64,000 bases of DNA from an uncultured Methanoregulaceae archaeon (GCA_963705255.1 OY970061.1:672001-736000), one strand, 5' to 3'. Counted from the first letter of the stretch, positions 16,924 to 45,168 are shown. Numbers and translations are program-made. The notes: generated by a model not told the origin, from the letters alone.

Positions 16924-18171
16924 TCAGGCATCCTGGAGTTCCCGGATGACGGCAGAAAGCCGTTCCACACCGGTACGGATCTTATCGGGCGTTGCATTGG
17001 AGAAATTGACCCGGAGCGTGTTCTGTCCGCCCCCGTCCACGTAAAACGGGATGCCCGGGAGGACGGCGACCTGCTGCCGGAGAGCGCATTCAAAGACATC
17101 CATGGAGAAGATCCCGTCCGGGAGCGTAAGCCAGACAAACATCCCCCCGGATGGCCGGGTATAGGTCACAGACTCCGGCAGCATCTCCTCAAACATCCGG
17201 ATCATGAGATCGCACTGGCTCTTGTATGCGGCACTGATTGCCTGTACCCGTGCATCGATCTCCCCGCGGCACAGGTACTCGAACGCAATCCTCTGGGACA
17301 GGTAATTGGAATGGAGGTCGGACGCCTGTTTTGCCACAACGATCTGCTCCATGACCTCGGGAGGCGCGACCACCCACCCCATCCGCAGGCCGGGGGCAAG
17401 GATCTTGGAGAATGACCCGGTGATGATCGTCTGGTCAGGCAGGAACTCCCGGACCGACGGGCTCGATCTTCCTGAAAAATTCAGTTCGCCATACGCGTCG
17501 TCCTCGACAAAGAGCGTCCCGCTCCCTTCGAGTATCCCGGCGATCTCGCGGCGCCGTTCATCGGAATAGGTTATGCCGGACGGGTTCTGCGAATTCGGCA
17601 CGCCGTAGAATAACTTCAGGGGGTACCTGCCTGCCACATCGGCAAGCATGACGGGGTCCGGCCCGTCTTCCCGGAGGATGACCGGGTGAAAGCAGGGTTC
17701 GTAGAGGGAAAACGCCTGGATGGCCCCAAGGTATCCGGGGCGTTCGATCGCCACGTGGTCCCCGGCATCGATGAGCACTTTGCCTATCAGGTCGAGGCAC
17801 TGCTGCGACCCGTTGGTGATGAGGATCTCGTCCGGGGAGACGGAGAGTCCCAGCCGTTTTTTGTACCGCTCGGCAATGAACTGCCGGAGCGGGAGGTATC
17901 CTTCGGTGGTGGAGTACTGGAGTGCCGACCTTCCGTCCTCTGCGAGCACGATGGAAGCTGCTTTCGCAATCCCCTCGACATCGATGAGTGCCGGGTTGGG
18001 AAGCCCCCCGGCAAAGGAGATGATCTCGGGGTTCTCGGTCACCTTGAGAATTTCGCGGATGAACGACTTGGGAGTCCGCGCCATCCGCTGTGCGAAGGTG
18101 TAACTTTGTTTCTGCCGGTCTGATTTTTGTGTGCCGGAGGTTCCGGACTGAGCTGACGGGTGAGTGTTCAT
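16924..18171 (-). CDS. PLP-dependent class I/II aminotransferase (LysN/MocR-like catalytic domain, no HTH)
   Basis: ISFAGGLP, ITNGSQQ, QNPSG, EDDAYGEL, GSFSKILAPGLRMGW. Confidence 0.9.
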   Translation of the reverse strand: MNTHPSAQSGTSGTQKSDRQKQSYTFAQRMARTPKSFIREILKVTENPEIISFAGGLPNPALIDVEGIAKAASIVLAEDGRSALQYSTTEGYLPLRQFIAERYKKRLGLSVSPDEILITNGSQQCLDLIGKVLIDAGDHVAIERPGYLGAIQAFSLYEPCFHPVILREDGPDPVMLADVAGRYPLKLFYGVPNSQNPSGITYSDERRREIAGILEGSGTLFVEDDAYGELNFSGRSSPSVREFLPDQTIITGSFSKILAPGLRMGWVVAPPEVMEQIVVAKQASDLHSNYLSQRIAFEYLCRGEIDARVQAISAAYKSQCDLMIRMFEEMLPESVTYTRPSGGMFVWLTLPDGIFSMDVFECALRQQVAVLPGIPFYVDGGGQNTLRVNFSNATPDKIRTGVERLSAVIRELQDA

Positions 18172-18394
18172 AAATCACCTGCAAAAACCTGCATAAACTG
18201 AGATAAATTAGGTTGTATATGCCTTTAAAGCATCAGGAGCCCCGGAGCACCGGTTTTATGTGAACTGCTGGTGCAGGGAAATGATCATAACCGGGATCTG
18301 GCCGGAAAAATACCGGTACCGAAAAAGGCTGGACCCGGTGCATAAGCCGCTGGTAGTGTATGCTCTGGATATCATTCTGGTGCAAACTCATACT

Positions 18395-18760
18395 CGCTAA
18401 ATTATTTTCTGGTCCAATCCGGTACGCGTCAAGAATATTTTTGGCTCGATCACGTACGAGGCAAAAAATTTCCGGCCCGATCTGAGTTGCGCCAAAAATA
18501 TTTTTGGGCCGATCTGAGTTGAGGCAAATTTTTTTTTGGCGCGACCGGGGCATGTCAGACAACTAGCTTTCAGACGTGAACGATCATTTTTAGGAGGGGG
18601 TCCCAAATATTTTTTTGGCTCATACCGAGTTGAGGCAAAAAAACTTTTGACGCGATCTGAGTTGAGCCGGAAATTTTTTTGGCGTGATCGGGCATGAGGC
18701 CAAAATATTTTTGGACCAATCACAATCGCGCCGGAAATTCTTTTGAGGCAATCAGACATA
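18395..18760. repeat. Degenerate tandem array: 2 x 5 units of 31-32 bp with palindromic A/T core
   Basis: Unit approx. CCAAAAATATTTTTGG-NNC-GATC-TGAGTTGAG; equivalent positions 18417, 18449, 18480, 18512, 18544 and 18623, 18655, 18687, 18719, 18751. Confidence 0.9.
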
Positions 18761-18819
18761 GTTCACTTTCACCCTCCCCATGGCCTGCCTTATTATCCCA
18801 AATCCTGCCACTATGGATC

Positions 18820-18996
18820 ATGGAAGCACTTACACGACAGATGGTCCAGCCAGTACCCTATGACTACCAGAAGATCCAGAGAATCCGCGAGAGGATCAAG
18901 GAAGTCTTCGGGCGCGAAAGTATCATGAATGACGAGCTGCTGTTAAAACGGTATAACATAACTCCCGATGGCGACCTGATCATGATCGTGCGGTAA
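18820..18996 (+). CDS. Small hypothetical protein (58 aa)
   Basis: ATG 18820, upstream TTATTA (~18790), natural-looking composition MEALTRQ...DLIMIVR. Confidence 0.55.
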   Translation: MEALTRQMVQPVPYDYQKIQRIRERIKEVFGRESIMNDELLLKRYNITPDGDLIMIVR

Positions 18997-19190
18997 TCTC
19001 CAAACAATTGCATGGAAAGAAGGTTACCGCTTCTTCGGCTGCTCCCGGGATTTATTTGATGCAATGAAAAGAACCGCGAAGAATAACCAGACCTATACCT
19101 GACTCTCTACATCTATGCACCGTCCGGACCGGGGGTCTGAAGAGGATAGAGTCATCCGGGAAAATTCAAGATTAAAATTAGATTTATAAA

Positions 19191-19496
19191 CTAAAAATCC
19201 GGGAGAAGATATCCATATGGACTATTTTTAGAGTCTTCATATTGTTGTCTGCTAAAAATTCGTTGGTTAAATTGTTGCCCAAGTACTGAGCCAGAGACAA
19301 TATATTGTTTAGTAAACAGACCATCGCTACCATAGAGATATGTGACTTCAGTAACAGTAATTCCTCCAATTATAAAGTTTGAAGATTTTGATTGTCGATT
19401 TAGTTCTACGCATCCTGCTGAAAAGGTTGTTATAACCAATAATAGTATAAGGAGTAAAACAGTAATTCGACGAGTTTTAAATATTTTTTCCGACAC
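19191..19496 (-). CDS. Hypothetical lipoprotein-like protein in AT-rich islet
   Basis: Basic N-terminus, hydrophobic stretch, SAGC lipobox-like motif. Confidence 0.5.
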   Translation of the reverse strand: MSEKIFKTRRITVLLLILLLVITTFSAGCVELNRQSKSSNFIIGGITVTEVTYLYGSDGLFTKQYIVSGSVLGQQFNQRIFSRQQYEDSKNSPYGYLLPDF

Positions 19497-19596
19497 AAGT
19501 TTAAATATAATTTATCTAGTGATAAATTTTTTGAAATAATAGTATAATCTTTGATGTGGATAAAATTATTCGGAAGAATCCGACATGGAGATTATG

Positions 19597-20043
19597 TTAA
19601 AAAATATCCCATTTTTTGACCATTTCTTCGATCCTTATGAGACGTTCATCTCTGTCCTCATTGATTTTTATATTTTTAAGTTGTTCTTTAAAAGAAAAAT
19701 ATATAGTCAAGTAGGCGATGGAGACTCCTATAAACGCAATCCCGTTGGAGGTTGGATTTAATGCTAGCGGGCATACGTATGCGATAATAGCGAGTATAAA
19801 GAATGCAATTGTCCCTATAAACCCTATTCTAGCCCACAATCGTATAAATTCTTTTGAGTGGGTATAGTTTGACGTCATAAGTGATCGAATCAACAAATTA
19901 AAAGAATAATCTTTCGGAACTCCCTCGCAATGAACCATAAGCAGAATGCCCCGACCGAGATTTCTATTTTCAAAGATATAATGAATCGGACAACGAATTA
20001 AGGATATTTTGACAAAATAACCCAAAAGATTTGAACTTTTCAA
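19597..20043 (-). CDS. Hypothetical 2-TM membrane protein in AT-rich islet (true start probably internal, MTSNY)
   Basis: Two hydrophobic helices followed by a charged tail. Confidence 0.45.
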   Translation of the reverse strand: MKSSNLLGYFVKISLIRCPIHYIFENRNLGRGILLMVHCEGVPKDYSFNLLIRSLMTSNYTHSKEFIRLWARIGFIGTIAFFILAIIAYVCPLALNPTSNGIAFIGVSIAYLTIYFSFKEQLKNIKINEDRDERLIRIEEMVKKWDIF

Positions 20044-28866: not shown

Positions 28867-29913
28867 TTATAACACCGGCTTCTGTTTCAGGGCAGCCACC
28901 AGAAGCCTTACACCGGCCTCGATGTCCCGGGTATCCAGGACCTCGACCGGGGAATGAATGTAGCGCGACGGGATGCTGACCGTCGTGCTCGGGATGCCCC
29001 CCTTGGTCAGGTGGATCGCCGTTGCATCGGTCGTGCCCCCGCTCCCGACTTCCATCTGGACCGGGATGCTGTTTGCATCTGCCGCGTCCTTGAGCCACTT
29101 GACAACCTTTCGGCTGGCGATCAGGCCGCGCCCGCTGCTGTCGACAATGGTTATTACCGGGCCCTTGCCCATCTCCACCGGTGCGTCCTTCATATCGATG
29201 CCCGGGTGGTCGCCCGGTATCGTGACATCGGTTGCGATCGCGCAGTCCGGGTCAAGGGTATAGGCACTCGTGCGGGCCCCTTTCAGCCCTACTTCCTCCT
29301 GGACGGTGAAGACCCCGTAGATCGTGAGCGGGGAGTCCACTTCCTGCAGGGTCTTGATCAGCATGGCGACCCCGGCCCGGTTGTCGAAGGCCTTCCCGGT
29401 CACCCGGTCGTGCGCCAGCTCGGCGAATTCCCGGTCCACGGTAACCGGCGTGCCCACGTCGATCCCGAGGACTTCGGCCTCCTGCCGGTTCGCAGCCCCG
29501 ATATCGATGAACATGTCGTCGATCTTCACGCCTTTCTTGCGTTCCTCCTCGTCCATCATGTGGGGGGGCTTTCCGCCGATGACGCCGAAGCACGGGCCTT
29601 TTGTCCCATGGAGGATGACCCGCTGGTTGTAGAGGGTCGGGCCATACCATCCCCCGAGCGCGACGAACCGGATGAACCCCTTGTCATCGATATATTTGAC
29701 CATCAGCCCGATCTCGTCCATGTGGGCTGCAAGCATGACGCTGAACTTGCTGCCGCGCCTGATGGCGATGAGGTTGCCGAGCGGATCCTCGCGGATCTCG
29801 TCCACATGCCCCCGGAGTTCCTTCCTGATGATCGCAAACACGCTGCCTTCACTGCCCGAGACGCCGTGGGCATTGGATAATTTCCGTAAGAGTTCTTTGA
29901 CCATATCAACCAC
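28867..29913 (-). CDS. M42 family (TET-like) aminopeptidase
   Basis: AAHMDEIG, GKAFDNR, QEEVGLKGA, GGTTD, RYIHS. Confidence 0.93.
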   Translation of the reverse strand: MVDMVKELLRKLSNAHGVSGSEGSVFAIIRKELRGHVDEIREDPLGNLIAIRRGSKFSVMLAAHMDEIGLMVKYIDDKGFIRFVALGGWYGPTLYNQRVILHGTKGPCFGVIGGKPPHMMDEEERKKGVKIDDMFIDIGAANRQEAEVLGIDVGTPVTVDREFAELAHDRVTGKAFDNRAGVAMLIKTLQEVDSPLTIYGVFTVQEEVGLKGARTSAYTLDPDCAIATDVTIPGDHPGIDMKDAPVEMGKGPVITIVDSSGRGLIASRKVVKWLKDAADANSIPVQMEVGSGGTTDATAIHLTKGGIPSTTVSIPSRYIHSPVEVLDTRDIEAGVRLLVAALKQKPVL

Positions 29914-31012
29914 CTATTACACTCCGAATCCTATCAAGGGCCCGGTCCAGGTTCTCCCGGGACGTTGCGTAGCTCAGCCTCGCGTACTCCGGAGCATTCA
30001 CGCCAAATGCAGATCCTGGCACGACGATTACCCCGCTTTCGATGATCTTCTGGGCGACTTCCGGTTTCATGGGTACAAAAGCATAAAATGCACCTTCGGG
30101 GATCGGGAATCCCAGCCCCATGCCGGAGAGCCCTCTCCAGATGATATCCCTGCGTGCCCGGTACTCATCGCGCATCACGTTTACCATGTGCTGGTCGCCT
30201 TCGTAGGCGGCAACCGCGGCGTACTGCGAGATCGAGGTAGCGCAGGCCTGGCAGTACTGGTGCACCTTGATGCACTGGCCGACGATCTCGTCGGGCGCTG
30301 CCAGATACCCGAGCCGCCACCCGGTCATGGCATAGGTCTTGCTCGTCGCATTGATGGTGACGACATTGTCGCCGAACCTTCCGGCACTCCAGTGTTCCCC
30401 GCCATAGATGAAGTGCTCGTACACCTCATCGGAGACAACGGTCACATCCTTGTCAGCGGCATATTCGACCAGTGCCCTGATCGACTCTTTGCTCTCGACG
30501 GCCCCGGTCGGGTTTCCCGGCGAGTTCAGGACAAGCAGGCGGGCACCGTCCATCAGCCCCTTTGCCTGCTCGACATCGATATGGAGGTCTCGTGTAAGCG
30601 GGACGCTGACCGCCCTGCCGCCGGCAAGGGTCGCAAGGGCGTTGTACCAGACAAAACCCGGGTCGGGGCAGAGCACCCGGTCGCCCACGCTCACGAGCGC
30701 CTGCATGACAATATGGAGCGCCTCGCTTGCGCCGGCGGTAATAATGACCTGGTCGGGGTCGTAGACCAGCCCGTTTTCCTTGCGGAATTTTTTGCAGACT
30801 GCGGTACGGAGTTCCGGTATCCCGTTGTTGCTGGTATACCCGGTCTTCCCCTCCCGGATTGCTGCAATGGCCGCGTCCTTGATGTGCTGGGGGGTGTCAA
30901 AGTCCGGCTGCCCGAGCCCGAGGTTGATCGAGCCGGGACCTGCCGCTTCAAATATCTTCCGGATGCCGGATATTTCGATACCGGCTACCCGTTCGGAAAA
31001 TTTCACTGGCAT
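29906..31012 (-). CDS. Aspartate-type PLP aminotransferase
   Basis: LGLGQPDF, NSPGNPTG, SDEVY, SKTYAMTGWRLG. Confidence 0.9.
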   Translation of the reverse strand: MPVKFSERVAGIEISGIRKIFEAAGPGSINLGLGQPDFDTPQHIKDAAIAAIREGKTGYTSNNGIPELRTAVCKKFRKENGLVYDPDQVIITAGASEALHIVMQALVSVGDRVLCPDPGFVWYNALATLAGGRAVSVPLTRDLHIDVEQAKGLMDGARLLVLNSPGNPTGAVESKESIRALVEYAADKDVTVVSDEVYEHFIYGGEHWSAGRFGDNVVTINATSKTYAMTGWRLGYLAAPDEIVGQCIKVHQYCQACATSISQYAAVAAYEGDQHMVNVMRDEYRARRDIIWRGLSGMGLGFPIPEGAFYAFVPMKPEVAQKIIESGVIVVPGSAFGVNAPEYARLSYATSRENLDRALDRIRSVIGG

Positions 31013-31026
31013 GGGGGATCCTGTTC

Positions 31027-31626
31027 TCACTCGATATTCGTGTGTCGGTTCTTGAGGGCGGTCTCATCGGTCTTGGTAATCTCCATCAGGCGGGAGATCA
31101 CGGCATCGCCGAAGATCATGGAGGCGGTCTCGAAGAGCGTCCCCAGCGGGGCAAACGACTTGTGGTCCCCCATCATCTGCCGGATCTCGAACTCGACCGT
31201 ATCGTCTTTCACCTCGTCGCGCTGGTGCTCGATGATGACGGTGCATGTCGAGATCTTCCCGATGCGGGAGTCCGCGTTTGACGTGATCAGGCAGATATGG
31301 GCCCCCACCTCCTTTGCAGTCTCCGCGATATCGGCCACGGTCTTGGTCCGCCCGGAACCGGAAAAGACCACCATCAGGTCCCCGGGGCTGATTGCCGGGG
31401 TGATGGTCTCTCCCACCACGTAGGCCTGCAACCCGAGGTGCATGAGCCGCATGGCAAAGGCTTTTGCCACGAGGCCCGACCGTCCGGCCCCGATCGCGTA
31501 GACCCTCTTCGCTTTCAGCAGCTCGTTCAGGAACTTCTCCACGTCTTCGTCGGATATCGTATTGGCAATTGTCCGGATCTTCGATGCCATCAACAGCATC
31601 ATTTCCTGTACCCTGTGGCTCTCCAT
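31027..31626 (-). CDS. hxlB: 6-phospho-3-hexuloisomerase
   Basis: GAGRSGL, AFAMRLMHLG, SGSG, APLGTLFE, C-terminal RHTNIE. Confidence 0.92.
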   Translation of the reverse strand: MESHRVQEMMLLMASKIRTIANTISDEDVEKFLNELLKAKRVYAIGAGRSGLVAKAFAMRLMHLGLQAYVVGETITPAISPGDLMVVFSGSGRTKTVADIAETAKEVGAHICLITSNADSRIGKISTCTVIIEHQRDEVKDDTVEFEIRQMMGDHKSFAPLGTLFETASMIFGDAVISRLMEITKTDETALKNRHTNIE

Positions 31627-31772: not shown

Positions 31773-32612
31773 GTGAAAGCGCCGCTGGTAAAATGGGCCG
31801 GGGGGAAACGGCAGATCCTGGATCAGCTGAGCGCAAACCTGCCGGGACACTGGGATACGTACTTCGAGCCGTTTGTTGGTGGCGGGGCGCTCATGGTAAA
31901 CCTCCAGAACAGCGGAAGGATCTCACGTGCTGTCATATCCGATCTCAATGCTGAGCTGATCAACCTGTACCGTGTCGTAAAATCTCGTCCGCACCGGCTC
32001 ATCGGAGAGCTCTCCAGCGAGCGGCTCCGGAATGATGAAGACTCGTTCCGGCAGTTGAAAGAGGAGTTCAACGGGCTTGCAGGCTCCCGGAACAATCCAG
32101 TCAGGCGGGCGGCACTTTTCATCTATCTGAACAAGCACGGGTACAACGGCCTCTGGCGGGTCAACCGGAAGGGGAAGTTCAATGTCCCGTTCGGTCGGCA
32201 TACCAGGAAAAGTCTCCCTTCGGAGTCCTCAATCCTGAAATTCCATGCCATGCTGCGGAATGTTGCCGTCCTGAATGCCGATTTTGAGAAAGCGGTCAGG
32301 AGTGCGAAAAAAGGGGATTTCATCTATTTCGATCCCCCGTATCATCCGCTCTCGAAGACCGCTGGTTTCACCGGTTACAACCCGGACGGGTTCAGGTTCC
32401 GGGACCAGGAACGGCTGGCACGGGTATTCGGGAAACTTACCGACAACGGTGTCCAGCTGATGCTGAGCAATTCAAAAGTTCCCGAGATCGAAGAATTATA
32501 CCAGGACTTTCACGTACGGACGGTTGCTGCAAAACGGTTCATCAACTGCAATGGTGAGCGGCGGAACGGTGCATACGAGATCATCGTGACGAATTACGAT
32601 ACGGCCGATTGA
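31773..32612 (+). CDS. dam: Dam/DpnM (D12)-family N6-adenine DNA methyltransferase, no adjacent restriction gene
   Basis: KWAGGK, YFEPFVGGG, YNGLWRVN.KGKFNVPFG, YFDPPY, MLSNS. Confidence 0.88.
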   Translation: MKAPLVKWAGGKRQILDQLSANLPGHWDTYFEPFVGGGALMVNLQNSGRISRAVISDLNAELINLYRVVKSRPHRLIGELSSERLRNDEDSFRQLKEEFNGLAGSRNNPVRRAALFIYLNKHGYNGLWRVNRKGKFNVPFGRHTRKSLPSESSILKFHAMLRNVAVLNADFEKAVRSAKKGDFIYFDPPYHPLSKTAGFTGYNPDGFRFRDQERLARVFGKLTDNGVQLMLSNSKVPEIEELYQDFHVRTVAAKRFINCNGERRNGAYEIIVTNYDTAD

Positions 32613-34758: not shown

Positions 34759-35835
34759 TCAGCGCTTGGACCGGCGCACCGATACTGCAATTGCCAGTGC
34801 AGCAGCGATCAGGACACCGAGCACAGGAACCAGCACCGGGAGAGGAACGGGAGACGCGCTCTTGACCAGGGCCGGGGAGACCGTAACGGTCTCCCCTGCT
34901 TTGACCGTGACCTGTATCGAGTACGGCAGGTATCCTGAGGCATTGAGACCGACCGTGTGATCACCCGCAGGGATATTCTCAAGGTTTATTGGTGTCTGCC
35001 CCTTCATGATAGAGTCCACGGAGACCGAGGCCCCGGCAGGAGTTGAAGTAACGGCGATCGTGCCGGTCACCGGACCGGTTACCGGGGGCGTTGCAGGTAC
35101 CAGCGGCGTGGGGGCAGCGGTCACGTTCGATGCCGGGGCCTGCGGAGATACGACCTGCAGGGTAGTCCGGTACGTGGCGGCTGTGGTCGGACTGTCGAGG
35201 GTGACCGTGTAAGAGCCCGGCTGCATATCGATATGGAAGCCCTGGTTGAAGTATCCGGTAGCACTCACCGGAGTGTAGAATGTATGCAAGACCTGTCCAC
35301 TGCCGTCGGTTATCTGCAGCCTGACACTCTCGACATTATTTCTTGCGGTCCCCACGAACTGGACATAGTCCCCGGTTTCAGGCGTTGCCGGGGTCACCGA
35401 GAAGTAGAAATCGGGTTTATCCATCATGACTGATATTGTTGAGGAGTCTGCAGGATTTGAAAGGTCCACCGCAGTTATATAATACCGTGCTGTCTGCAAC
35501 AGTTCCATTCCATTCACCATGGACGTATCCCAGTCATATTGCCACGACCCGTCCGGGTTGGATATGGCCGGGTTTCCCGTGCCCGGAGTACCTTTCAGGT
35601 CCATGAGCGGGACTCCCTCGGCCGGCAACCCGGGACCGGTAATTTTCAAAAACGTGACATTCCCGACGGTGTTTTGCCCATCGAAAATGACCATGTTTCC
35701 GATATATATCCCGCCAGCGCCACGATAGGTAATTGAGACAGAACCCCCATCAGCAGATACCGCTTGGACGATGCATACTGCTGCGACGAGCAGTACCAGA
35801 ACCGGGATCTTCCTGTTCGTATGGATTACACCCAT
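34759..35835 (-). CDS. Cell-surface PEGA-domain protein with C-terminal sorting-signal-like TM
   Basis: Signal peptide, Pro/Thr linker, VTSTPAGASVSVD..GQTP PEGA pattern, TM helix plus RRSKR tail. Confidence 0.8.
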   Translation of the reverse strand: MGVIHTNRKIPVLVLLVAAVCIVQAVSADGGSVSITYRGAGGIYIGNMVIFDGQNTVGNVTFLKITGPGLPAEGVPLMDLKGTPGTGNPAISNPDGSWQYDWDTSMVNGMELLQTARYYITAVDLSNPADSSTISVMMDKPDFYFSVTPATPETGDYVQFVGTARNNVESVRLQITDGSGQVLHTFYTPVSATGYFNQGFHIDMQPGSYTVTLDSPTTAATYRTTLQVVSPQAPASNVTAAPTPLVPATPPVTGPVTGTIAVTSTPAGASVSVDSIMKGQTPINLENIPAGDHTVGLNASGYLPYSIQVTVKAGETVTVSPALVKSASPVPLPVLVPVLGVLIAAALAIAVSVRRSKR

Positions 35836-35977
35836 TTTTAACCTCTCGATGTACAGGATATCATTTAAAAAGAATATATAATTTTGTTATTGAAGGGCAT
35901 TTTTTAAAAACAAGCCAGTATCCTGACCCTTCTCCGGTATCCCGTGACGAAACTATATCTAGGTTACCGGGCAACCC

Positions 35978-38029
35978 ATGATCAGAGGGAACCTGAAAAT
36001 GCCCGACGTGGAATTGGCCAAAAAACAGGGTGAAGACCTGTTGAAAACACGAGTTTTTACAGTACGGCAGTCATTCTCCTACGAAGAGACGGCATACCAC
36101 CTTCCGATCTCGTATGCGCTGACGGGGGTTCCGGTTCATGACCGGAAAGCCGCGCTCGACGTTTATTCCCGGACCGGCAGCAACCCCCTCGTTGCATCGG
36201 AGAGCATCCTGGCTGATATGACCGCGGTCGCGGGAAAGGAACCCGCCCCCTATACCGGTTTTATCAGCGACACCGTCATCCGCAAGCTTGGGTATTCCCT
36301 CGTTGACGGGAGCATCCTCGGTCTTGCCCTTGTCGTCGGGACCCCGCGGAATGCCGGTATGGCAGCAGCGGTCTGCCGCGAACTGCAGGAAAAATACATG
36401 CTCACCTTCCTTGCCGGCAAGGTCATCCCGGCCCTGTCCGGTGCCGGTGTCAGGCTCGGCCTCGAATACCGCCTCATTCCCCTCGGGTCAACACCGTTTT
36501 ACGGTGTGCATTTCGTGGATATCATCGCCCGGGTGGCGATGATGTTCGGGGGCGTCCCGCCGGGTGATACCCACCGGCTCCTGACCTATGCTGCCGAACG
36601 TGCCCGGGCGATCGTCATCGTCTTCCCCGGCCTGACCGATGAAGAGATCGCCCTTGTCGACGGCATGCGGGTGCTCGGGTTCCCCATCCTGACTCCCGGG
36701 GGTTACCAGGGGGGTTCCTGGATACAGGCAGGCCCGGAGGATATTGTCCGGAAGGGGATGGAAGAGAGAGGGATCCGGGTCAATGTCACCGCAATCCCGA
36801 TCCCCATGGGCTGTTCCCCGGCTTTTGAGGGGAAGAGCATCCGCAAGGAAGAGATGTACGTGGAATTCGGCGGGGGCAGGTCTCCTGCTTTTGAGCTGCT
36901 CAGGATGCGCATGCCAGAGGAGATCAGGGACGGGCAGGTGACGGTCATCGGCCCTGAGATCGGGACCATGAAGGAAGGATCTGCAAACCCCCTTGGCATC
37001 ATCATCGAGGTTGCCGGCAGGACCATGAAAAAAGATTACGAGCCGGTGCTGGAGAGGAGGATCCACAACTTCGTCAACTATGGGGAGGGGTCGTGGCACG
37101 TGGCCCAGCGGGACATCATCTGGGTGAGGATCTCGAAGGAGGCCGTTGCAAAAGGCGTCAGGATCGAGCATATCGGAAAGCTGCTGGCCAGCAAATTCCG
37201 GATGGATTTTCCCCAGCTGCTCGACGCGGTCTCGGTCACGCTGATCACGGATGAGAAAAAAGTCCTTGCCGCAAAGAAAGAGGCCGAGGAGGTATATGAC
37301 GAACGCGATGCCCGCATCAAGGGGATGCGGGACCAGGACGTTGATACCTACTACTCCTGCACCCTGTGCCAGACCTTTGCCCCCAACCATGTCTGCGTCA
37401 TCACGCCGGAACGCCCGGCTCTCTGCGGCGCGATCAGCTGGCTCGACGGGAAAATAGCCTTCGAGATGTCGCCGGCCGGGGCGAACCAGCCGGTCGAAAA
37501 AGGAGCGGCCCTGAACGTCCAGAACGGCGAATTCGAAGGGGTGAACCGCTTTATCAAGAAAGCCAGCCACGGGGAGATCGAACGGTGTTCGCTCTACAGT
37601 GTCATGGAATACCCGATGACCTGCTGCGGCTGTTTCGAGGCCATTGCCCTGATGCTGCCGGAAGTGAACGGGATCATGGTAGTGAACCGGGAGTTCAAGG
37701 GAATGACACCCTCGGGCATGACCTTCTCCACGCTTGCCGGGACGATCGGCGGCGGTGCCCAGACACCGGGGTTTGCCGGTATCTCGAAAAATTACATCCT
37801 CTCGGACCGGTTCCTCCAGGGAGAGGGGGGGATCGAGCGGCTGGTATGGATGCCCTCCCAGCTCAAAGAGGAACTCAAGGACCGGCTCATGAATAAAATC
37901 GCAGAGAAAGGGCTTGTCGGCCTCTTCGAGAAGATCGCGGACGAGACGATGGCCGCGACAATCGAGGATCTCGCGGCATTTCTCGAGAAGGTGCAGCACC
38001 CGGCTCTCGGTATGAAACCGCTGGTGTGA
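35978..38029 (+). CDS. acsB: Acetyl-CoA synthase, long bacterial-type AcsB
   Basis: A-cluster ligands SCTLCQTFAPNHVC..LCG and PMTCCGCFEAI; N-terminal TAYHLP and YTGFISD motifs of the bacterial N-domain; 683 aa. Confidence 0.92.
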   Translation: MIRGNLKMPDVELAKKQGEDLLKTRVFTVRQSFSYEETAYHLPISYALTGVPVHDRKAALDVYSRTGSNPLVASESILADMTAVAGKEPAPYTGFISDTVIRKLGYSLVDGSILGLALVVGTPRNAGMAAAVCRELQEKYMLTFLAGKVIPALSGAGVRLGLEYRLIPLGSTPFYGVHFVDIIARVAMMFGGVPPGDTHRLLTYAAERARAIVIVFPGLTDEEIALVDGMRVLGFPILTPGGYQGGSWIQAGPEDIVRKGMEERGIRVNVTAIPIPMGCSPAFEGKSIRKEEMYVEFGGGRSPAFELLRMRMPEEIRDGQVTVIGPEIGTMKEGSANPLGIIIEVAGRTMKKDYEPVLERRIHNFVNYGEGSWHVAQRDIIWVRISKEAVAKGVRIEHIGKLLASKFRMDFPQLLDAVSVTLITDEKKVLAAKKEAEEVYDERDARIKGMRDQDVDTYYSCTLCQTFAPNHVCVITPERPALCGAISWLDGKIAFEMSPAGANQPVEKGAALNVQNGEFEGVNRFIKKASHGEIERCSLYSVMEYPMTCCGCFEAIALMLPEVNGIMVVNREFKGMTPSGMTFSTLAGTIGGGAQTPGFAGISKNYILSDRFLQGEGGIERLVWMPSQLKEELKDRLMNKIAEKGLVGLFEKIADETMAATIEDLAAFLEKVQHPALGMKPLV

Positions 38030-38033
38030 GACC

Positions 38034-38990
38034 ATGAGCTTCGACCTGAATTTCGGCTGGACCTCGACCATCGGGGAAGTCGTACTCGGCGCAACGAAGG
38101 CTGATGGCGGGACACGGAGACTCTCGTACCGGATCGGCGGCGGAAAAACACTCCCCTTCCTGGAGAGCCGGGCAGACTCCCCCTCTCCCCTCATCGCCCT
38201 CGAGATCTGCGACTACCTCCCGTTCTGGTCGCCGATCGTGAAGAATTACTGCGGGGACCTGGTCAACAGTGTCGGCGAGTGGGCAAAAGCGGCCGACGCT
38301 TCCTATGGTGCCGACCTCATCCGGCTGTACCTGACCAGCACCCGGCAGCGAAACTTCTCGGATATCGCAACGCTTGGAAAAACGGTCGAAGACGTCCTGT
38401 CGGCATCCAGCCTCCCGCTCGTGATCGAAGGGAGCAACGAGCCGAAGATCGACAGCGAGGTCTTCCAGACGTGCGGCGAGGTGGCGCAGGGGGAGCGCCT
38501 CCTTCTCGGCACCGCGGAAGCAGGGAAGTACCGGAGCGTAGCTGCAGCCGCCCTTGCCTACAACCACTCCATCATCGCCCAGTCGCCAATAGACATCAAC
38601 CTGGCAAAGCAGCTCAATATCCTCCTGAAGGAGATCGGAGTCCAGCGGGACTACATCGTGATCGACCCGTACACCGGCGCCCTCGGCTACGGGTTCGAGT
38701 ATTCCTATTCGGCAATGGAGCGGATCCGGTTCTCCGCCCTCAAGGGGGATGCCGATCTCGCTATGCCGATGATCTGCTCCGCGATCGATTCGCTCACCAT
38801 CAAGGAGGTGCGGGAAGCCGAACCCGGACTCCAGGACGAGATGGCGACCCGGTGGGAGTTTTACACCGGTATCGCGGCAGCGGCGGCCGGCGCTGAGATC
38901 GTCTGCGTACGCCACCCTGGCACCATCCCCCTTCTCCGGAAGGCATTCACCGACATGAAAAAATCTGCAGGCCCCGCGGAGATGCAATAA
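38034..38990 (+). CDS. acsD: Corrinoid iron-sulfur protein small subunit (AcsD/CdhD)
   Basis: IGEVVLGAT..GGTR, SPIDINLAKQLN, GALGYGFEYSYSAMERIR. Confidence 0.93.
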   Translation: MSFDLNFGWTSTIGEVVLGATKADGGTRRLSYRIGGGKTLPFLESRADSPSPLIALEICDYLPFWSPIVKNYCGDLVNSVGEWAKAADASYGADLIRLYLTSTRQRNFSDIATLGKTVEDVLSASSLPLVIEGSNEPKIDSEVFQTCGEVAQGERLLLGTAEAGKYRSVAAAALAYNHSIIAQSPIDINLAKQLNILLKEIGVQRDYIVIDPYTGALGYGFEYSYSAMERIRFSALKGDADLAMPMICSAIDSLTIKEVREAEPGLQDEMATRWEFYTGIAAAAAGAEIVCVRHPGTIPLLRKAFTDMKKSAGPAEMQ

Positions 38991-40342
38991 TGGCACTCAA
39001 GGCACTGGACATCTATAAGCTCCTCCCGAAGAAGAACTGCAAGGAGTGCGGCGACCCGACCTGCCTCACCTTTGCCATGAAACTTGCCGGCGGGAAGGCA
39101 GACGTTGACCTCTGCCCGTACCTGAGCGAGGAGGCAAAATCCGTTCTCGGGGCGAGCACCCGGCCGCCCATACGGCTCGTGAGGGTCGGGGTCGGCGAGC
39201 GGTTCTTCAAGGTGGGGGAAGAGACGGTTCTGTACCGGCACGAGAAGACCTTCTACCACCCTCCCGGTATCGTCTTCCGGGTCCGCGATACGCAGGCGGC
39301 TCCGGAGATCGCTGCAGTCACCCGCCGGGTGCGGGACGAGACCTTCACCCGCGTGGGTGCCGATCTCCGCTTCAGCGGCATCGCCATCGAGAATACCAGC
39401 GGGTCGGCAGAAACGTTCGCAAAGGCGGTTGCGGCTGTCGAGGCGGAACAGGCCCACCTCCCTCCCGTGCTCATTGCGAAGGATCCTGCAGCGCTCAAGG
39501 CAGGCCTCGTCCACTGCGGCTCCTACCGTCCGCTCCTCCACGCGGCGAATAAGGAAAATTTCCGGGAGATGTGTGCACTTGCGAAGCAGTACGGGTGCCC
39601 GCTGGTCATCCGGGCTGCAACGCCCGAAGGACTCGTCCAGCTGGTGAAAGACTGCACAGCAGAAGGAGTGCAGGACCTCATGCTCGATCCCGCACCGGAG
39701 ACGCTCGGGGCGTTCATCACCCGCTCCACGCTGATACGTCAGCTCGCGATCACGCGTTCGGTCCCCGAGCTCGGGTATCCTGTTTTTCTCGATTCCACCC
39801 TGACCGGGCAGCAGGACGCAGCAATCGCACTGGGCATCGTCAAATATGCCTCGGTCATCGTGACCGACCCCCTCGCACCAGGCCCGGCGAAGGCCGCCCT
39901 CACCCTCCGGCAGAACATCTACACCGATCCCCAGAAGCCGATCCAGATGAACCCGGGGCTGTACCGGGTCGGGACCCCGGACAAGGACGCGCCGGTCCTG
40001 ATGACGGTGAACTTCTCGCTCACCTTCTTCACGCTTCAGGGGTACCTCGAGTCTACCCGGATCCCCTGCTTCATGCTGATCGTCGATACCGAGGGAATGT
40101 CGGTCCTGACCGCGGTCGCGGCAGGAAAACTGAACGAGTTCCTGGTCCGGGACGCGATCAGGAAGTTCGGGGTGGAGAGCGAGGTTTCCCACCGGAAGCT
40201 GATCATTCCCGGGTATGCCTCGCCGCTTTCAGGGCAGATCGAGGAGGCGACCGGCTGGAAGGTGCTCGTCGGCCCCCGCGACGCCGCCGAGATCGGGGAG
40301 TTCCTCCACGAGGAGTGGAAGAAGCAGGCCGGGACGCAATGA
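38990..40342 (+). CDS. acsC: Corrinoid iron-sulfur protein large subunit (AcsC/CdhE)
   Basis: LLPKKNCKECGDPTCLTFA..CPY Fe-S motif, YRHEKTF, RQNIYTDPQKP, LIIPGYA. Confidence 0.95.
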   Translation: MALKALDIYKLLPKKNCKECGDPTCLTFAMKLAGGKADVDLCPYLSEEAKSVLGASTRPPIRLVRVGVGERFFKVGEETVLYRHEKTFYHPPGIVFRVRDTQAAPEIAAVTRRVRDETFTRVGADLRFSGIAIENTSGSAETFAKAVAAVEAEQAHLPPVLIAKDPAALKAGLVHCGSYRPLLHAANKENFREMCALAKQYGCPLVIRAATPEGLVQLVKDCTAEGVQDLMLDPAPETLGAFITRSTLIRQLAITRSVPELGYPVFLDSTLTGQQDAAIALGIVKYASVIVTDPLAPGPAKAALTLRQNIYTDPQKPIQMNPGLYRVGTPDKDAPVLMTVNFSLTFFTLQGYLESTRIPCFMLIVDTEGMSVLTAVAAGKLNEFLVRDAIRKFGVESEVSHRKLIIPGYASPLSGQIEEATGWKVLVGPRDAAEIGEFLHEEWKKQAGTQ

Positions 40343-40560
40343 TTTTCTGGATCCCAGCCCGAAAAGACCACCTCTCCCTCATCCATTCCGCGGTGTCCGG
40401 GATCGTCCGGAGGGTGCGGAAGGAGGGGAAAGGGCAGGGAATAATTGCTCAACAAAGAATCCTGATGGATTCGTCTCGTCTTTGTGGTCCTGATGGATCA
40501 CGAAAGACACCGCAGGCTATTTGACCCTTATATCCCAATCTCTGTTAAGGAACTACCAGC

Positions 40561-42462
40561 ATGCGTACCGTTACCTTCCTTCCCAGTTATCGCAAGATCG
40601 AAGTGGAACCGGGGACAACCATCCTCGATGCAGCCCAGCGGGCAGGGCTGAACATAAACGTAGTCTGTGGCGGGCAGGGCAAATGCGGCAAATGCGTTGT
40701 GTTCATCCAGTCGGGAAAAGTTGAATTCGACCGCCAGAAATACGGGCGGTTCTTTTCCGAGGCCGAACTCCAGAAAGGAGCCTGTCTCGCATGCGAGGGG
40801 TCCGTCCAGGGAGACATCCATATTGTCATTCCCGAGACAACGCTGATCCAGGAGCAGAAGATCCTTGTTGAAGGCGTCGAGAACCGGATCGATTTCCACC
40901 CGTCCGTGAAAAAATATTATGTCGAGCTCCAGCCCCCGAGCCTTGCCGACCCGTCACCGGACCTGTCACGGCTCCTCTGGGGCATCCAGAAGAGTGGCGG
41001 GCCGGTGGCAGAGAAGATGTACGCACCGCTCGAGGTGCTCCGCGAGATCCCCGGGATCCTGCGCCACAGTGAATGGAAAGTGACCGGCACCATCGGCCTC
41101 GTGCCCGGCGGCTACCGCCTCCTCGACCTCCAGGAGAACGATACCTCCTCGCGGGTCTTCGGGGCAGCCGTAGACCTCGGCTCCACGACCGTCGTCGTGT
41201 ATCTCTGGGACCTCGTCACGGGAAAGGTTGTCAGTGTTGCATCGAACTATAACAAGCAGATCAGCTGCGGCGAGGACATCCTTGCCCGGGTGAACTTCGC
41301 ACGAAAGAACGGCCTTGCGAAACTCCAGTCACTTGCGGCGGAGAGCATCAACCAGGCGCTCACCACTGCATCCAACACCGCCGGGATCGACCGCGAGGAC
41401 ATCTACGAAGTGGTTGTTGCAGGAAACACGGTCATGACGCATATGCTGCTCGGCATCGACCCGGCCTACATGATAGCCGAACCCTATGTCCCGGTCGTCA
41501 GGCGGGCCCTCTCGGTGGCTGCGGGCAGGATCGGCATCACCTGCAACCCGAACGGCGGGCTCTTTGTCTTCCCGGCCGTCAGTGACTTCATCGGGGGCGA
41601 CATCATATCCGATATCCTGGCCTGCGGCATGAACGAACGGGAGGAGATCTCGCTCCTGATCGATATCGGCACCAACTTCGAGGTCGTGCTCGGCAACAGG
41701 GAATGGATGTTCTCCTGCGCCGGTGCCGCCGGGCCTGCTCTCGAAGGCGGCGAAGTCCTCTTCGGCATGAGGGCAAATCCGGGTGCGATCGAGAAGCTCA
41801 CGATCGACCCTGCGACCCTCGACCCCACGTACTCCACCATCAACGGTATCAGACCGCGGGGGATCTGCGGATCGGGCCTGATCGACCTGCTCGCCGAACT
41901 GCTGGCAGCCTGCGTGATTGACAGGACAGGGCGCATCAATACCGAGATCAGCAACCCGCGTATCCGGAAGACCGCCCATTTCCCGGAGTTTGTGATCGCA
42001 TGGGCGGATGAGACCGAGATCAACAAGGAGATCGTCATTACGGAGAACGATATCAAGAACCTGATCATGAGCAAAGCCTCGGTCCACGCGGCCTGCGTGA
42101 CCCTGATGAAGGAAGCCGGCGTCTCCCGTCGCGAGATATCCACCATCTATTTTGCCGGGGCTTTTGGGAATTACCTTGACAAGAAGAATGCCACCACCAT
42201 CGGCCTGATCCCCGAGATTGATCCCGACCAGATCAGGAACATCGGGAACGGTGCCGTGGCCGGTGCCAATATCGCGCTCATCAACCGGCGGACGAGAAAG
42301 ATTCTGGACGAAATCGCTTACAAGATCGCGTATATCGAGCTGAACGCGGAGAGCTCGTTCATGGACGAGTACACCTCGAGCTCGTTCCTCCCGCACACCG
42401 ATCTCTCGCTCTTCCCGATGGTGCAGAAGATGCTGGACGAGTGCCGTATCCGGAAGGCCTGA
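40561..42462 (+). CDS. acsV: Reductive activator of corrinoid proteins (RACo/AcsV; 2Fe-2S + ASKHA ATPase)
   Basis: CGGQGKCGKC..LAC, DLGSTT, DIGTN, AAGPALEG, GICGSG, AGAFG. Confidence 0.9.
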   Translation: MRTVTFLPSYRKIEVEPGTTILDAAQRAGLNINVVCGGQGKCGKCVVFIQSGKVEFDRQKYGRFFSEAELQKGACLACEGSVQGDIHIVIPETTLIQEQKILVEGVENRIDFHPSVKKYYVELQPPSLADPSPDLSRLLWGIQKSGGPVAEKMYAPLEVLREIPGILRHSEWKVTGTIGLVPGGYRLLDLQENDTSSRVFGAAVDLGSTTVVVYLWDLVTGKVVSVASNYNKQISCGEDILARVNFARKNGLAKLQSLAAESINQALTTASNTAGIDREDIYEVVVAGNTVMTHMLLGIDPAYMIAEPYVPVVRRALSVAAGRIGITCNPNGGLFVFPAVSDFIGGDIISDILACGMNEREEISLLIDIGTNFEVVLGNREWMFSCAGAAGPALEGGEVLFGMRANPGAIEKLTIDPATLDPTYSTINGIRPRGICGSGLIDLLAELLAACVIDRTGRINTEISNPRIRKTAHFPEFVIAWADETEINKEIVITENDIKNLIMSKASVHAACVTLMKEAGVSRREISTIYFAGAFGNYLDKKNATTIGLIPEIDPDQIRNIGNGAVAGANIALINRRTRKILDEIAYKIAYIELNAESSFMDEYTSSSFLPHTDLSLFPMVQKMLDECRIRKA

Positions 42463-42467
42463 ACAGC

Positions 42468-43511
42468 ATGGCAAAGATGATTGCATCCCCCCATTCACTT
42501 GCCACCGGCGTAGGCGCGCTCCCCCATACCGATCCGGTCGAAGCGTGTGACGATGTGCTTGCCGTCTTCCCGGAGTTCCCGTACATACCCACCCTCCCGG
42601 ACCGGGGCCAGCTGGAGAGCATCGTCTTCAACGACTCCGAGCAGCTACCGGGACGGGTTATCCGGGAAGACCGGCTCCTCTTCGACAGCACCCGGGATCA
42701 GACTGCAGCAATGGAATCCGTGTACATGGACTATGTCGAAGGCAATTATGCCGCGTACGGCCTTCACCGGGAATATGCCTCTGCTTTCATCGAGATGATG
42801 TCCCGCCGGTTGCCGGCCGTTCAGGCGCTCAAGTGCCAGGTGACCGGACCGGTCACGTTCGGGATGCAGGTCGTTGACGCGAACAAGCGGCCCATCTACT
42901 ACGATACCCAGCTCGCCGACGTCCTGTCCAAGATGATCGCCCTCAAGGCCCGCTGGTGCGAGGAGGAGATGAAGAAGAAGACCGGCGTGTCCGGGACCCT
43001 TGTCGTCCTGAACGAACCGTACCTTGCATCGCTCGGCTCTTCGGTCGTGCCGGTAGACCGCGAGAGCGTCAGGACCGGCTGGGAGGACATCGCGGCACTT
43101 GTCGAAGGCGGGCTCGGCGTCCACTGCTGCTCGAACACGGACTGGGAGTTTGTACTTGGCCTCAACCCATCCGTTGTCTCGCTCGATGCCTATGCCACGG
43201 CCAGGGAGTTCCTCCTGTACACGGAAGCCGTCATCTCCTACATGGAACGCGGGGGAGTTGTTGCCTGGGGGATCGTACCCGCGGATTACCGGATCTTTAC
43301 TACGGAGACCGTGGACTCGCTGTATGAGCGCTACCTCGCAATACGATCGCAGCTCACGGCCCGGATGCCGGAAGATCTCTTCGATGCCCAGTCGCTCATA
43401 ACCCCGAGCTGCGGTATCCGGTTTGCCGATCGCAGCGGGTCCCGTGCAATCATGGGAGCAGCAGCCGGGATATCCCGGCGTATCAGGGCAGAAAACCGTG
43501 ACCTGCCATAA
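42468..43511 (+). CDS. Core (folate-independent) methionine synthase-like methyltransferase, MesB-like
   Basis: TGVGALPH, QVTGPVT, NEPYL, GVHCCSNTDW, SLDAY, AWGIVP, ITPSCG; single MetE-type catalytic barrel. Confidence 0.75.
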   Translation: MAKMIASPHSLATGVGALPHTDPVEACDDVLAVFPEFPYIPTLPDRGQLESIVFNDSEQLPGRVIREDRLLFDSTRDQTAAMESVYMDYVEGNYAAYGLHREYASAFIEMMSRRLPAVQALKCQVTGPVTFGMQVVDANKRPIYYDTQLADVLSKMIALKARWCEEEMKKKTGVSGTLVVLNEPYLASLGSSVVPVDRESVRTGWEDIAALVEGGLGVHCCSNTDWEFVLGLNPSVVSLDAYATAREFLLYTEAVISYMERGGVVAWGIVPADYRIFTTETVDSLYERYLAIRSQLTARMPEDLFDAQSLITPSCGIRFADRSGSRAIMGAAAGISRRIRAENRDLP

Positions 43512-43521
43512 TGGGATCACC

Positions 43522-44289
43522 ATGCCTCAAAAGCCATTCACCATTGCCATCTCCGGGAAAGGCGGCACCGGAAAGACGACCATCAGTTCGCTCCTCGTCC
43601 GCTCCTTCATCGAACTGGGGGAGGCACCGGTCCTTGCCGTGGACGCGGACCCGAATGCCAACCTCCACGAGGCCCTCGGCGTCACCGTCCGCGAGACGCT
43701 CGGGAGCATGCGGGAGGAGGCGTTCACCCGCACCATTCCCCCGGGCATGAACCGGCACGACTATGTGAAATACCGTTTCCGGCAGGCCCTTGTCGAAGCC
43801 GAAGGGTTCGACCTGGCTGCCATGGGAAGGCCTGAAGGGAGCGGGTGCTACTGTTTTGCCAATGATCTGCTCTCGGAATGCATGCTGAATCTTGAACGGG
43901 ACTATCACTTCATTGTCATTGATACCGAAGCAGGCATGGAGCACATCAGCCGGGGGACTATCGGGAAACCGGATATGCTCCTTATCGTGAGCGACCCCGG
44001 GGCCCGCGGGCTCCGCACGATCTCACGTATCCGGGAGATCGCGACCCAGCTGGGCCTTGAGAATGGGAAGATCCATATCGTATTCAACCGGTACAAATCC
44101 GGCACAGCCCCGGTCGACATCGGGGACGAGTCGCCAATAGCGATTGTCCCGGACGATCCTGCGGTCGAGAGCGCCGACCTTGCAGCTTCCCCGGTGTCGC
44201 TGATCCCGGCCGGAAGTCCTGCCCGGATCGCGGTGCGGGCACTTGCCGAGAAGATACGGGCGATGGCACGGGAAAAGGGCGGCAGGTAA
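43522..44289 (+). CDS. cooC: CooC/AcsF nickel-insertion ATPase
   Basis: GKGGTGKT, DADPNANL, GRPEGSGCYC, DTEAGMEH. Confidence 0.92.
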   Translation: MPQKPFTIAISGKGGTGKTTISSLLVRSFIELGEAPVLAVDADPNANLHEALGVTVRETLGSMREEAFTRTIPPGMNRHDYVKYRFRQALVEAEGFDLAAMGRPEGSGCYCFANDLLSECMLNLERDYHFIVIDTEAGMEHISRGTIGKPDMLLIVSDPGARGLRTISRIREIATQLGLENGKIHIVFNRYKSGTAPVDIGDESPIAIVPDDPAVESADLAASPVSLIPAGSPARIAVRALAEKIRAMAREKGGR

Positions 44290-44625: not shown

Positions 44626-45168
44626 CTACAAAAATACGGCCGCTGCAATGGTGGTCGTCCAGAGGCCGTTCTTGTCCCCCTCGGCCGACTGGCAGATATG
44701 CTTGGTCTTGATGATCTTGCCGCTCGCCTTGTAGATCTGTTCCCGCTCCTGCCATGCGAGGCTGACATCGAACTCGATCCCGAGGGTCGTTGCCAGCATG
44801 GTGGCGGCCAGGTCCTCGGCATATTCCCCGGTCTTCTGCTGGGTCTCGCCGAATGCATGGTGTTCCGACAGATAACCATATTCTTCCGAGTCGCTGGGAA
44901 GGGCAAGCCCGATGGCAGACGAGACGAGACGGTTCGGCTCATTGGTCTCGTTCCTTGCCATGACACAGAACGTCATGGCCCCCGGGGCCAGTTTTTTCAG
45001 TCCCATCGACCGGGTGATCTGTCTGCATTTCGGCGGGAAGATACTCGAGACATAGACGAGGTTGCACTTCTCTATGCCCGCTTTCCGCAGTGCCAGTTCG
45101 AATGACGCCAGACGATCTTTATGGACACCTACACCCTTGGTGAAAAAGATCTTTGTCGGAACATACAT
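44626..45168 (-). CDS. pdaD: Pyruvoyl-dependent arginine decarboxylase
   Basis: [39 protein letters not shown]. Confidence 0.93.

Follow-up and report, generated by a model that had tools for sequence, protein, structure and literature searches.

A stretch of 64,000 nucleotides from the genome of an uncultured Methanoregulaceae archaeon (GCA_963705255.1 OY970061.1:672001-736000; hereafter the window, equal to C1:672001-736000 of an assembly that consists of one contig of 2.60 Mb and is 89.5% complete) was found to carry, at positions 35978-44289 of the plus strand, six intact and co-oriented open reading frames (ORFs) in the order acsB-acsD-acsC-RACo-MesB-like-cooC. The conservation of this cluster within Methanomicrobiales shows that a self-sufficient set, combining an A-cluster enzyme of acetyl-CoA synthase (ACS) with a corrinoid carrier and the activase for it, a nickel maturase and a zinc thiol methyltransferase, is kept together under selection. 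As to its function, we give an even chance to a reading, drawn by analogy, in which acetyl-CoA is cleaved, its methyl group is passed to homocysteine as methionine and CO is left over. The limits of the cluster are the acsB start and the cooC stop, and its features and immediate surroundings are as follows.

34759-35835, minus strand: PEGA-domain gene, unrelated left neighbour.
35836-35977, no strand: AT-rich intergenic stretch with TATA-like runs, separating acsB from the PEGA gene that is read away from it; a candidate archaeal promoter region.
35978-38029, plus strand: acsB, bacterial-type acetyl-CoA synthase (A-cluster subunit), 683 aa (NF040764; Pfam CdhC and ACS_CODH_B_C).
38034-38990, plus strand: acsD, small subunit of the corrinoid iron-sulfur protein (CoFeSP), of the short bacterial size, 318 aa (NF003376; Pfam CdhD).
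38990-40342, plus strand: acsC, CoFeSP large subunit, 450 aa (NF003195, PF04060, HgcA-type corrinoid domain).
40343-40560, no strand: spacer between acsC and RACo, 218 bp, from the sequence as read.
40561-42462, plus strand: RACo/AcsV-type reductive activase of the corrinoid protein, 633 aa (Fer2, RACo_linker, Raco_middle, RACo_C_ter).
42468-43511, plus strand: predicted MesB-family ('core MetE') zinc thiol methyltransferase, 347 aa from ATG (fold, profile-profile comparison, zinc ligands).
43522-44289, plus strand: cooC/acsF-type nickel-insertion P-loop ATPase, 255 aa from ATG (Pfam CbiA and AAA_31, GKGGTGKT, Cys-x-Cys).
44626-45168, minus strand: pyruvoyl arginine decarboxylase gene, unrelated right neighbour.

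The ORF of the MesB-like gene opens at a GTG at 42441 and that of cooC at a TTG at 43423; the true starts are most likely the ATG at 42468 and the ATG at 43522, the latter 11 nt past the MesB-like stop, and two start corrections are made on this basis. An earlier note on this DNA, written from the sequence alone, had described the same six genes on one strand, bounded by unrelated genes and accompanied by neither carbon monoxide dehydrogenase (CODH) nor acsE. All six calls were upheld in one plus-strand run, and the flanking PEGA-domain and decarboxylase genes both lie on the opposite strand. Searches with PF03063, TIGR01702 and pterin-binding models likewise upheld the two absences: no PF03063 gene occurs within the window and no pterin-binding methyltransferase within the cluster, the sole clear pterin-binding (acsE-like) match of the genome being located at C1:1644212.

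The proteins of the acs part were assigned with little ambiguity. AcsB reached 911.7 bits against NCBIfam NF040764 (cut-off 800), carries an extra N-terminal domain of about 270 aa ahead of the CdhC-like core, and retains the cysteine motifs C461-x2-C464-x8-C473-x9-C483 and C550-G-C552, which we take to be the A-cluster ligands; its residues 275-677 are 44% identical to the CdhC of the same genome. AcsD scored 354.2 bits against the short-subfamily model NF003376 (cut-off 280) and AcsC 549.5 bits against NF003195 (cut-off 306), with a PF04060 FeS domain at residues 12-44 and an HgcA-type corrinoid domain at 317-446. All four domains of RACo (2Fe-2S ferredoxin, linker, middle and ASKHA) were matched in Pfam, and its 561 bits against the NCBIfam AcsV model NF040756 lie under the exception-level cut-off of 800 set for that model. 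The CooC-type ATPase carries the P-loop and a CYC motif, a Cys-x-Cys motif presumably being the mark of cooC/acsF-type nickel insertion.

The MesB-like protein gave no useful match in Pfam (to E 10), NCBIfam or PDB, either as a single sequence or as a 130-row profile, and was placed only by fold and profile-profile comparison; PDB sequence matches to a Fab and to XaxB were dismissed as chance. An AlphaFold2 model built with 130 homologues (predicted local distance difference test 96.6) ranked cobalamin-independent methionine synthases at the top in Foldseek (1u1h, E 1.3e-7). With VIA-align, the model was closest to the core synthase MesD (3rpd; Z 26.2, root-mean-square deviation 2.8 over 282 residues), followed by the C-terminal MetE barrels (Z ~25) and by uroporphyrinogen decarboxylases and the M. 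mazei methyltransferase 4ay7 (Z ~20). As modelled, the protein is a single MetE-type catalytic barrel without the folate-binding domain. The family profile was aligned with the genome's own MesA at 97.3%, and, end-to-end, with a second profile that combined 29 MesA and split-MetE proteins (99.8%, E 6e-27; one MesA-type translation with an internal stop was left out of it). In the profile alignment H219 and C221 fall on the HxC of MesA, D240 on the zinc Glu and C315 on the last Cys, and these four residues are read as the zinc ligands. Their spacing (2/19/75) is nearly that of the characterised Dehalococcoides (CBDB1) enzyme (2/19/76), for which H215, C217, D236 and C312 are given in the part of Deobald 2020 used here.

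The closest relatives outside Methanomicrobiales were found to be Anaerolineae and Dehalococcoidia proteins, at 34-41% identity, together with one Methanomassiliicoccales protein. As a proxy for the membership bar applied to MesB in Price 2021 (at least 130 bits by phmmer to D. mccartyi DET0516), family representatives at 28-43% identity scored 150-225 bits. The protein belongs to the MesB family by descent and is no proven methionine synthase; the name 'MesB-like' used in the earlier note was well chosen as to descent, given the MetE barrel of the model, the zinc-site spacing and the nearest outside relatives in Dehalococcoidia and Anaerolineae. The note had also proposed a phylogeny of each gene. 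In a quick IQ-TREE analysis of the MesB-like protein the Methanomicrobiales sequences formed a single clade (SH-aLRT 100), set off by a long stem of 0.81 + 0.89 changes per site and with Methanospirillaceae as the earliest branch.

The full six-gene order was present in 29 of 36 Methanomicrobiales loci and a different order in none (0/36), and therefore the arrangement is not due to chance. The remaining seven loci end at a contig edge, with the downstream genes agreeing in order as far as they are present. The same order was found in all of five further genomes (5/5), and by their titles the loci cover Methanoregula, Methanolinea, Methanoculleus, Methanofollis and Methanospirillaceae. Some Methanoregula relatives (loci L010, L013 and L047) hold an extra 1.4-3.4 kb between acsC and RACo, where the spacer here measures 218 bp. 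Among 301 Methanomicrobiales genomes, the MesB-like gene was detected in 139 and the bacterial AcsB N-domain in 138; both occurred together in 136, one only in 5 (assemblies 62-94% complete) and neither in 160. The module is inherited, gained and lost as a unit in Methanomicrobiales.

The outgroup consisted of 44 MesB loci, 43 bacterial (mostly Chloroflexota) and one from Methanomassiliicoccales. No acs gene lay within 10 kb in 43 of the 44, the exception being the Methanomassiliicoccales locus (L086), where mesB and cooC stand opposite acsC-acsD-acsB on the other strand; each acs gene there was matched in two pieces, a hint of frameshifts or of a gene structure that differs. RACo and cooC stand near the MesB gene in one Chloroflexota locus. 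A search for a donor lineage of AcsB came to nothing: the AcsB proteins of five genomes with outgroup MesB loci were 43-50% identical to the one studied here, no nearer than its own CdhC (44%), and therefore no donor lineage can be named.

From these parts and the known chemistry of their families a mechanism may be proposed. In this accessory module a monomeric AcsB would bring acetyl-CoA into equilibrium with CoA, CO and the methylated corrinoid protein, CH3-Co(III)FeSP, whose cobalt is carried by AcsCD; RACo would re-reduce, and so rescue, this cobalt when oxidised; the CooC/AcsF-type ATPase would insert nickel; and the MesB-like enzyme, in the place held by AcsE in bacteria, would activate a thiol on zinc and exchange the methyl group with the corrinoid. 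Because it brings its own carrier, activase and maturase, the module would act apart from the archaeal CdhABCDE complex and would require no CODH partner. On balance the methyl group of acetyl-CoA would end as a thioether, by default methionine formed from homocysteine, with CO remaining. A flow from acetyl-CoA through CH3-CoFeSP to a thiol fits the conserved operon and is plausible, and we infer that the MesB-like protein docks on AcsCD, which way the methyl group flows and which thiol receives it; a complex prediction that paired the MesB-like protein with residues 300-450 of AcsC, its corrinoid domain, scored 0.00 and 0.01 and speaks neither for nor against such docking. The earlier note had presented the same flow as a self-contained module encoded by a locally CODH-less operon. 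The conserved operon fits this proposal, and the lack of a CODH holds for the cluster, not for the genome.

The genome is Methanoregula-like, the database matches to the MesB-like protein being named Methanoregula, and it contains an mcrA gene. Its sole PF03063 CODH is an archaeal cdhA (C1:609553-611913), and no TIGR01702 match, hence no cooS by that model, was obtained in the genome. The cdhA gene opens a cluster situated about 95 kb upstream of the module, followed by cdhB, cdhC (467 aa), an 895-aa CdhD/CdhE ORF and a second RACo, with a second cooC-like gene upstream of the cluster. The CdhD part of the long ORF matches NF003375, unlike AcsD (NF003376). This ORF (C1:613858-616545; L005:9859-12546) joins CdhD and CdhE in one frame, with NF003375 over residues 69-384 and NF003195 over 430-893, by fusion or by a lost stop. 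ACS, corrinoid protein, activase and maturase are consequently each encoded twice in the genome, in two complete sets separated by about 95 kb, and a CODH accompanies only one of the sets. The earlier note had cautioned that a CODH might be encoded elsewhere and had proposed a genome search for cdhA, cooS and other methionine synthases; the caution was justified by the full archaeal cluster, and the search yielded cdhA, no cooS and a MesA-type synthase. The genome is neither CODH-less nor obviously acetate-dependent, because a full archaeal cdh cluster is present. Both homologues of AMP-forming acetyl-CoA synthetase (C1:1909427-1911237 and 266388-268210) match in two pieces with a stop between. 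Taken with the completeness of 89.5% for a single contig, this hints at pseudogenes or at indel errors of the assembly, a point that bears on claims about acetate activation.

The 139 carriers of the MesB-like gene comprise 38 genomes with both cdhA and cooS, 40 with cdhA only (this genome included), 40 with cooS only and 21 with no match to either. Some nickel-containing CODH was accordingly found in 118 of the 139, with cdhA in 78 and cooS in 78. The module was present in 78 of the 96 cdhA-positive genomes and in 61 of the 205 cdhA-negative ones, related genomes being non-independent samples in this comparison. Five of the genomes with neither gene were checked again with PF03063: three, each at least 98% complete and one of the same genus, contained no member of the family and one bacterial AcsB each, and in the other two the only match was a Prismane protein, about 530-550 aa long and missed by TIGR01702. 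Clearly, the module is independent of any fixed CODH partner, though most carriers have some CODH. In two other genera of the family (L090:13695-17831 of genome G163; L091, matching L025 of genome G065), the module is followed on the same strand by a 368-aa ORF that Pfam does not recognise and then, at a distance of about 2 kb, by a cooS-type CODH gene accompanied by its own cooC, the second at the locus. Across the order, a cooS-type monofunctional CODH was found in 157 of 301 genomes, often without cdhA, which occurred in only 96.

The substrate site of the MesB-like protein was compared in 35 Methanomicrobiales and 44 outgroup sequences (79 rows), two outgroup loci having been excluded by a length filter (L046-type fragments, fewer than 300 aligned residues, or sequences with X). 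The zinc ligands H, C, D and C were retained in 35/35 Methanomicrobiales; in the outgroup the first three were found in 44/44 and the last Cys in 43/44. The homocysteine-contact positions were taken as the equivalents of Ser433 and Asp599 of E. coli MetE, mapped through the profile alignment. At the first of them (position 17) the Methanomicrobiales have Ala in 21, Gly in 6 and Ser in 7 (n = 34), and the outgroup Ser in 41/44; at the second (position 182) the former have Asn in 29, Ser in 2 and Asp in 4 (n = 35), and the latter Asp in 43/44. Methanospirillaceae, at the base of the clade, kept both Ser and Asp. W40, Q42 and M52, invariant in the outgroup (44/44), are altered in all 35 Methanomicrobiales, as are Y53 (outgroup Y in 40/44) and G123 (outgroup G in 44/44). 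Q42 was also considered as the equivalent of Glu484, that is, as a third altered contact, and this was rejected, the profile alignment setting the Gln of MesA opposite the variable position 47. Model NF002119 was matched by 21 of 40 diverse family members, and a marginal match to MtaA or MtbA was obtained in only one of the 40.

Several points weigh against the favoured reading. The protein of this genome has Ala17 and Asn182 in place of the Ser433 and Asp599 equivalents and matches no methionine-synthase model, NF002119 included. The same genome encodes a MesA-type synthase (C1:2079494-2080345) with the canonical Ser, Asp, HxC, Glu and Cys, and the organism needs no MesB-like route to make methionine. 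A MesA-type gene was found in 286 of the 301 Methanomicrobiales genomes. Among the 139 carriers it was found in 137, and the two without it are 77% and 62% complete; in no near-complete Methanomicrobiales genome, therefore, does the MesB-like enzyme stand alone as methionine synthase. Acetyl-CoA cleavage is thermodynamically unfavourable when CO is not removed, and the N-terminal domain of AcsB, which contacts the CODH in bacteria, is retained here. For this genome, cdhA and MesA weaken the interpretation.

The same machinery might serve a thiol other than homocysteine, the Methanomicrobiales clade having been retuned to a different acceptor or donor, for instance coenzyme M, some other small thiol or a sulfur compound that carries a methyl group; the module would then connect this compound with the methyl group of acetyl-CoA. 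We regard this as unlikely. It would account for the replacement of the Ser433 and Asp599 equivalents in most of the clade and their conservation in the outgroup, for the five further positions altered in 35/35 members, for the monophyly and long stem of the clade and for the failure of the protein studied here to match a methionine-synthase model; in addition, a second methionine synthase would not be needed, because MesA is present in 137/139 carriers. The cautious word 'thiol', chosen for the acceptor in the earlier note, is apt in this respect, since both conserved contact residues are replaced here. Nevertheless, Asn can still hydrogen-bond an amino group and Ala keeps the backbone NH, the early-branching Methanospirillaceae retain Ser and Asp, and the structure resembles MetE and MesD (Z 25-26) more closely than the MtaA-like 4ay7 of the uroporphyrinogen decarboxylase (URO-D) family (Z ~20). 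MesA and MesC, with Gln at Glu484, are still taken as methionine synthases in the passages of Price 2021 considered here, and no positive sign of any alternative thiol was seen. That coenzyme M or another non-amino-acid thiol is the substrate in most Methanomicrobiales, which would give a shunt between the methyl of acetyl-CoA and methyl-coenzyme M independent of tetrahydromethanopterin (H4MPT) and Mtr, is held to be improbable.

The flow could also run in the synthetic direction, as the earlier note had allowed, the MesB-like enzyme demethylating a thioether (methyl-coenzyme M, methionine or a methylated sulfur compound) onto CoFeSP and AcsB adding free CO and CoA to form acetyl-CoA. The CO would be supplied by CdhA or CooS or taken up from the surroundings, and the module would serve to scavenge CO or as an additional means of carbon assimilation. 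The reactions of ACS can run both ways, and free CO is a substrate for the monomeric enzyme. The Ni-CODH of 118/139 carriers and the cooS-cooC pair that follows the module in two genera agree with such a role, which we nevertheless consider rather improbable: thioether demethylation onto cob(I) is established to be uphill, the genome already has a complete archaeal acetyl-CoA decarbonylase/synthase (ACDS) for acetyl-CoA synthesis, and the 21/139 carriers without a CODH match would therefore rely on outside CO. A more conventional explanation takes the cluster as the ACS half of an ordinary CODH/ACS working autotrophically with a distant CdhA (CooS in relatives), the MesB-like enzyme being a side tap towards methionine. 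The CODH of this genome, the retained N-terminal domain of AcsB and the higher frequency of the module with cdhA (78/96) than without it (61/205), counted over non-independent relatives, are consistent with this view. However, the cdh cluster is complete without the module, since CdhC, CdhD/E, RACo and cooC all come with it; cdhA went unmatched in 61/139 carriers, and both types of CODH in 21. The module also lacks a methyl-H4MPT- or methyl-tetrahydrofolate-linked methyltransferase (AcsE) to feed the corrinoid, and its AcsD is of the short bacterial subfamily, so that this explanation is thought very unlikely.

The only relevant papers found on a CODH-less ACS in Methanomicrobiales were Price 2021 (PLoS Genet 17:e1009342), Deobald 2020 and Anderson 2009, the last of which reports acetyl-CoA decarbonylase/synthase in M. 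hungatei and its absence in two other species. According to the text passages and Table S1 of Price 2021 on which we draw, all proteomes with MesB carry AcsC or AcsD, MesB occurring only with CoFeSP; it was present in 6 of 12 Methanomicrobiales proteomes, beside MesA, and in some methanogens mesB forms an operon with acsC and acsD, CoFeSP being proposed as the methyl donor. MesA and MesC, which have Gln for Glu484, were regarded there as methionine synthases all the same. The restriction of MesB to genomes that encode CoFeSP was also observed in the present sample, the MesB-like gene being clustered with acsD and acsC and the AcsB N-domain occurring in 136/139 carriers. The methanogen MesB of that paper belongs to the same family and the same order, with the same acsC/acsD linkage and the same proposed donor. 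The core idea, MesB with CoFeSP as donor in Methanomicrobiales, is already published, because Price 2021 reported the MesB-acsC-acsD operon and proposed the CoFeSP donor. Those passages and Table S1 make no mention of a co-resident archaeal ACDS, of CODH-free genomes or of the loss of homocysteine contacts in the Methanomicrobiales clade; added here are the scale of the module's distribution, the carriers without a CODH match and the remodelled substrate site.

The nearest parallel is the system of Dehalococcoides mccartyi (parts of Deobald 2020 and Price 2021; Zhuang 2014 via these), which shares AcsB, CoFeSP and a MesB-family enzyme of the His-x-Cys...Asp...Cys type, has neither AcsE nor CODH in the cluster, and for which the same path from acetyl-CoA through methyl-CoFeSP to a thiol is proposed. 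Unlike in D. mccartyi, all parts stand here in one operon, a full archaeal CODH/ACS and a MesA-type synthase make the route non-essential, and the homocysteine-contact Ser and Asp are replaced; nor is this genome a Dehalococcoides-type remnant, cdhA and cdhB being present, although 21/139 carriers do lack cdhA and cooS matches. The acs operon of acetogens (acsA-acsB-acsC-acsD-acsE-cooC/acsF-acsV) has AcsB, AcsC, AcsD, RACo/AcsV and the CooC-type maturase in common with the module, from which AcsA (CODH) is missing and in which a MetE-type zinc thiol methyltransferase replaces the pterin methyltransferase AcsE. The CdhABCDE complex of the same genome shares the A-cluster chemistry (AcsB and CdhC being 44% identical) and the type of corrinoid carrier, but differs in a CdhC without the N-terminal domain, a long archaeal CdhD, the presence of CdhA and CdhB, and H4MPT rather than a thiol as methyl partner. 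MtaA, MtbA and MtsA of the URO-D family are likewise zinc enzymes transferring methyl groups between corrinoid proteins and thiols on a related (beta/alpha)8 barrel; they belong to another family and are structurally further from the MesB-like model (4ay7, Z ~20) than MetE and MesD (Z 25-26).

Two further features of the window lie away from the module. The interval 18001-20000 has a GC content of 0.415, compared with about 0.57 around it, and contains short ORFs only; it may be a foreign or non-coding island. A D12-class N6-adenine DNA methyltransferase gene (31773-32612, plus strand) adjoins a 583-aa ORF without a Pfam match (29672-31423), and the two possibly form a restriction-modification pair.

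In peat and freshwater sediments, methane is produced predominantly by Methanoregula and its relatives, whose 'cdhC/D/E' genes have already been read as acetoclastic potential in the part of a recent report used here (Nat Commun 2025, PMC12296737). Many of these genomes hold two different ACS systems, one of them bacterial-type, CODH-independent and tied to a thiol methyltransferase, and inferences from gene counts therefore need care. If the methyl group of methionine does come from acetate, the solution of Dehalococcoides would be extended to archaea; if the acceptor has changed, a new link would exist between acetate and the methyl-thiol pool of methanogenesis. Were coenzyme M that acceptor, 'strictly hydrogenotrophic' methanogens would possess a hidden route by which acetate carbon is turned into methane, or methyl-coenzyme M and CO into acetyl-CoA. 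The module is a natural system in which ACS can be studied without a CODH partner.

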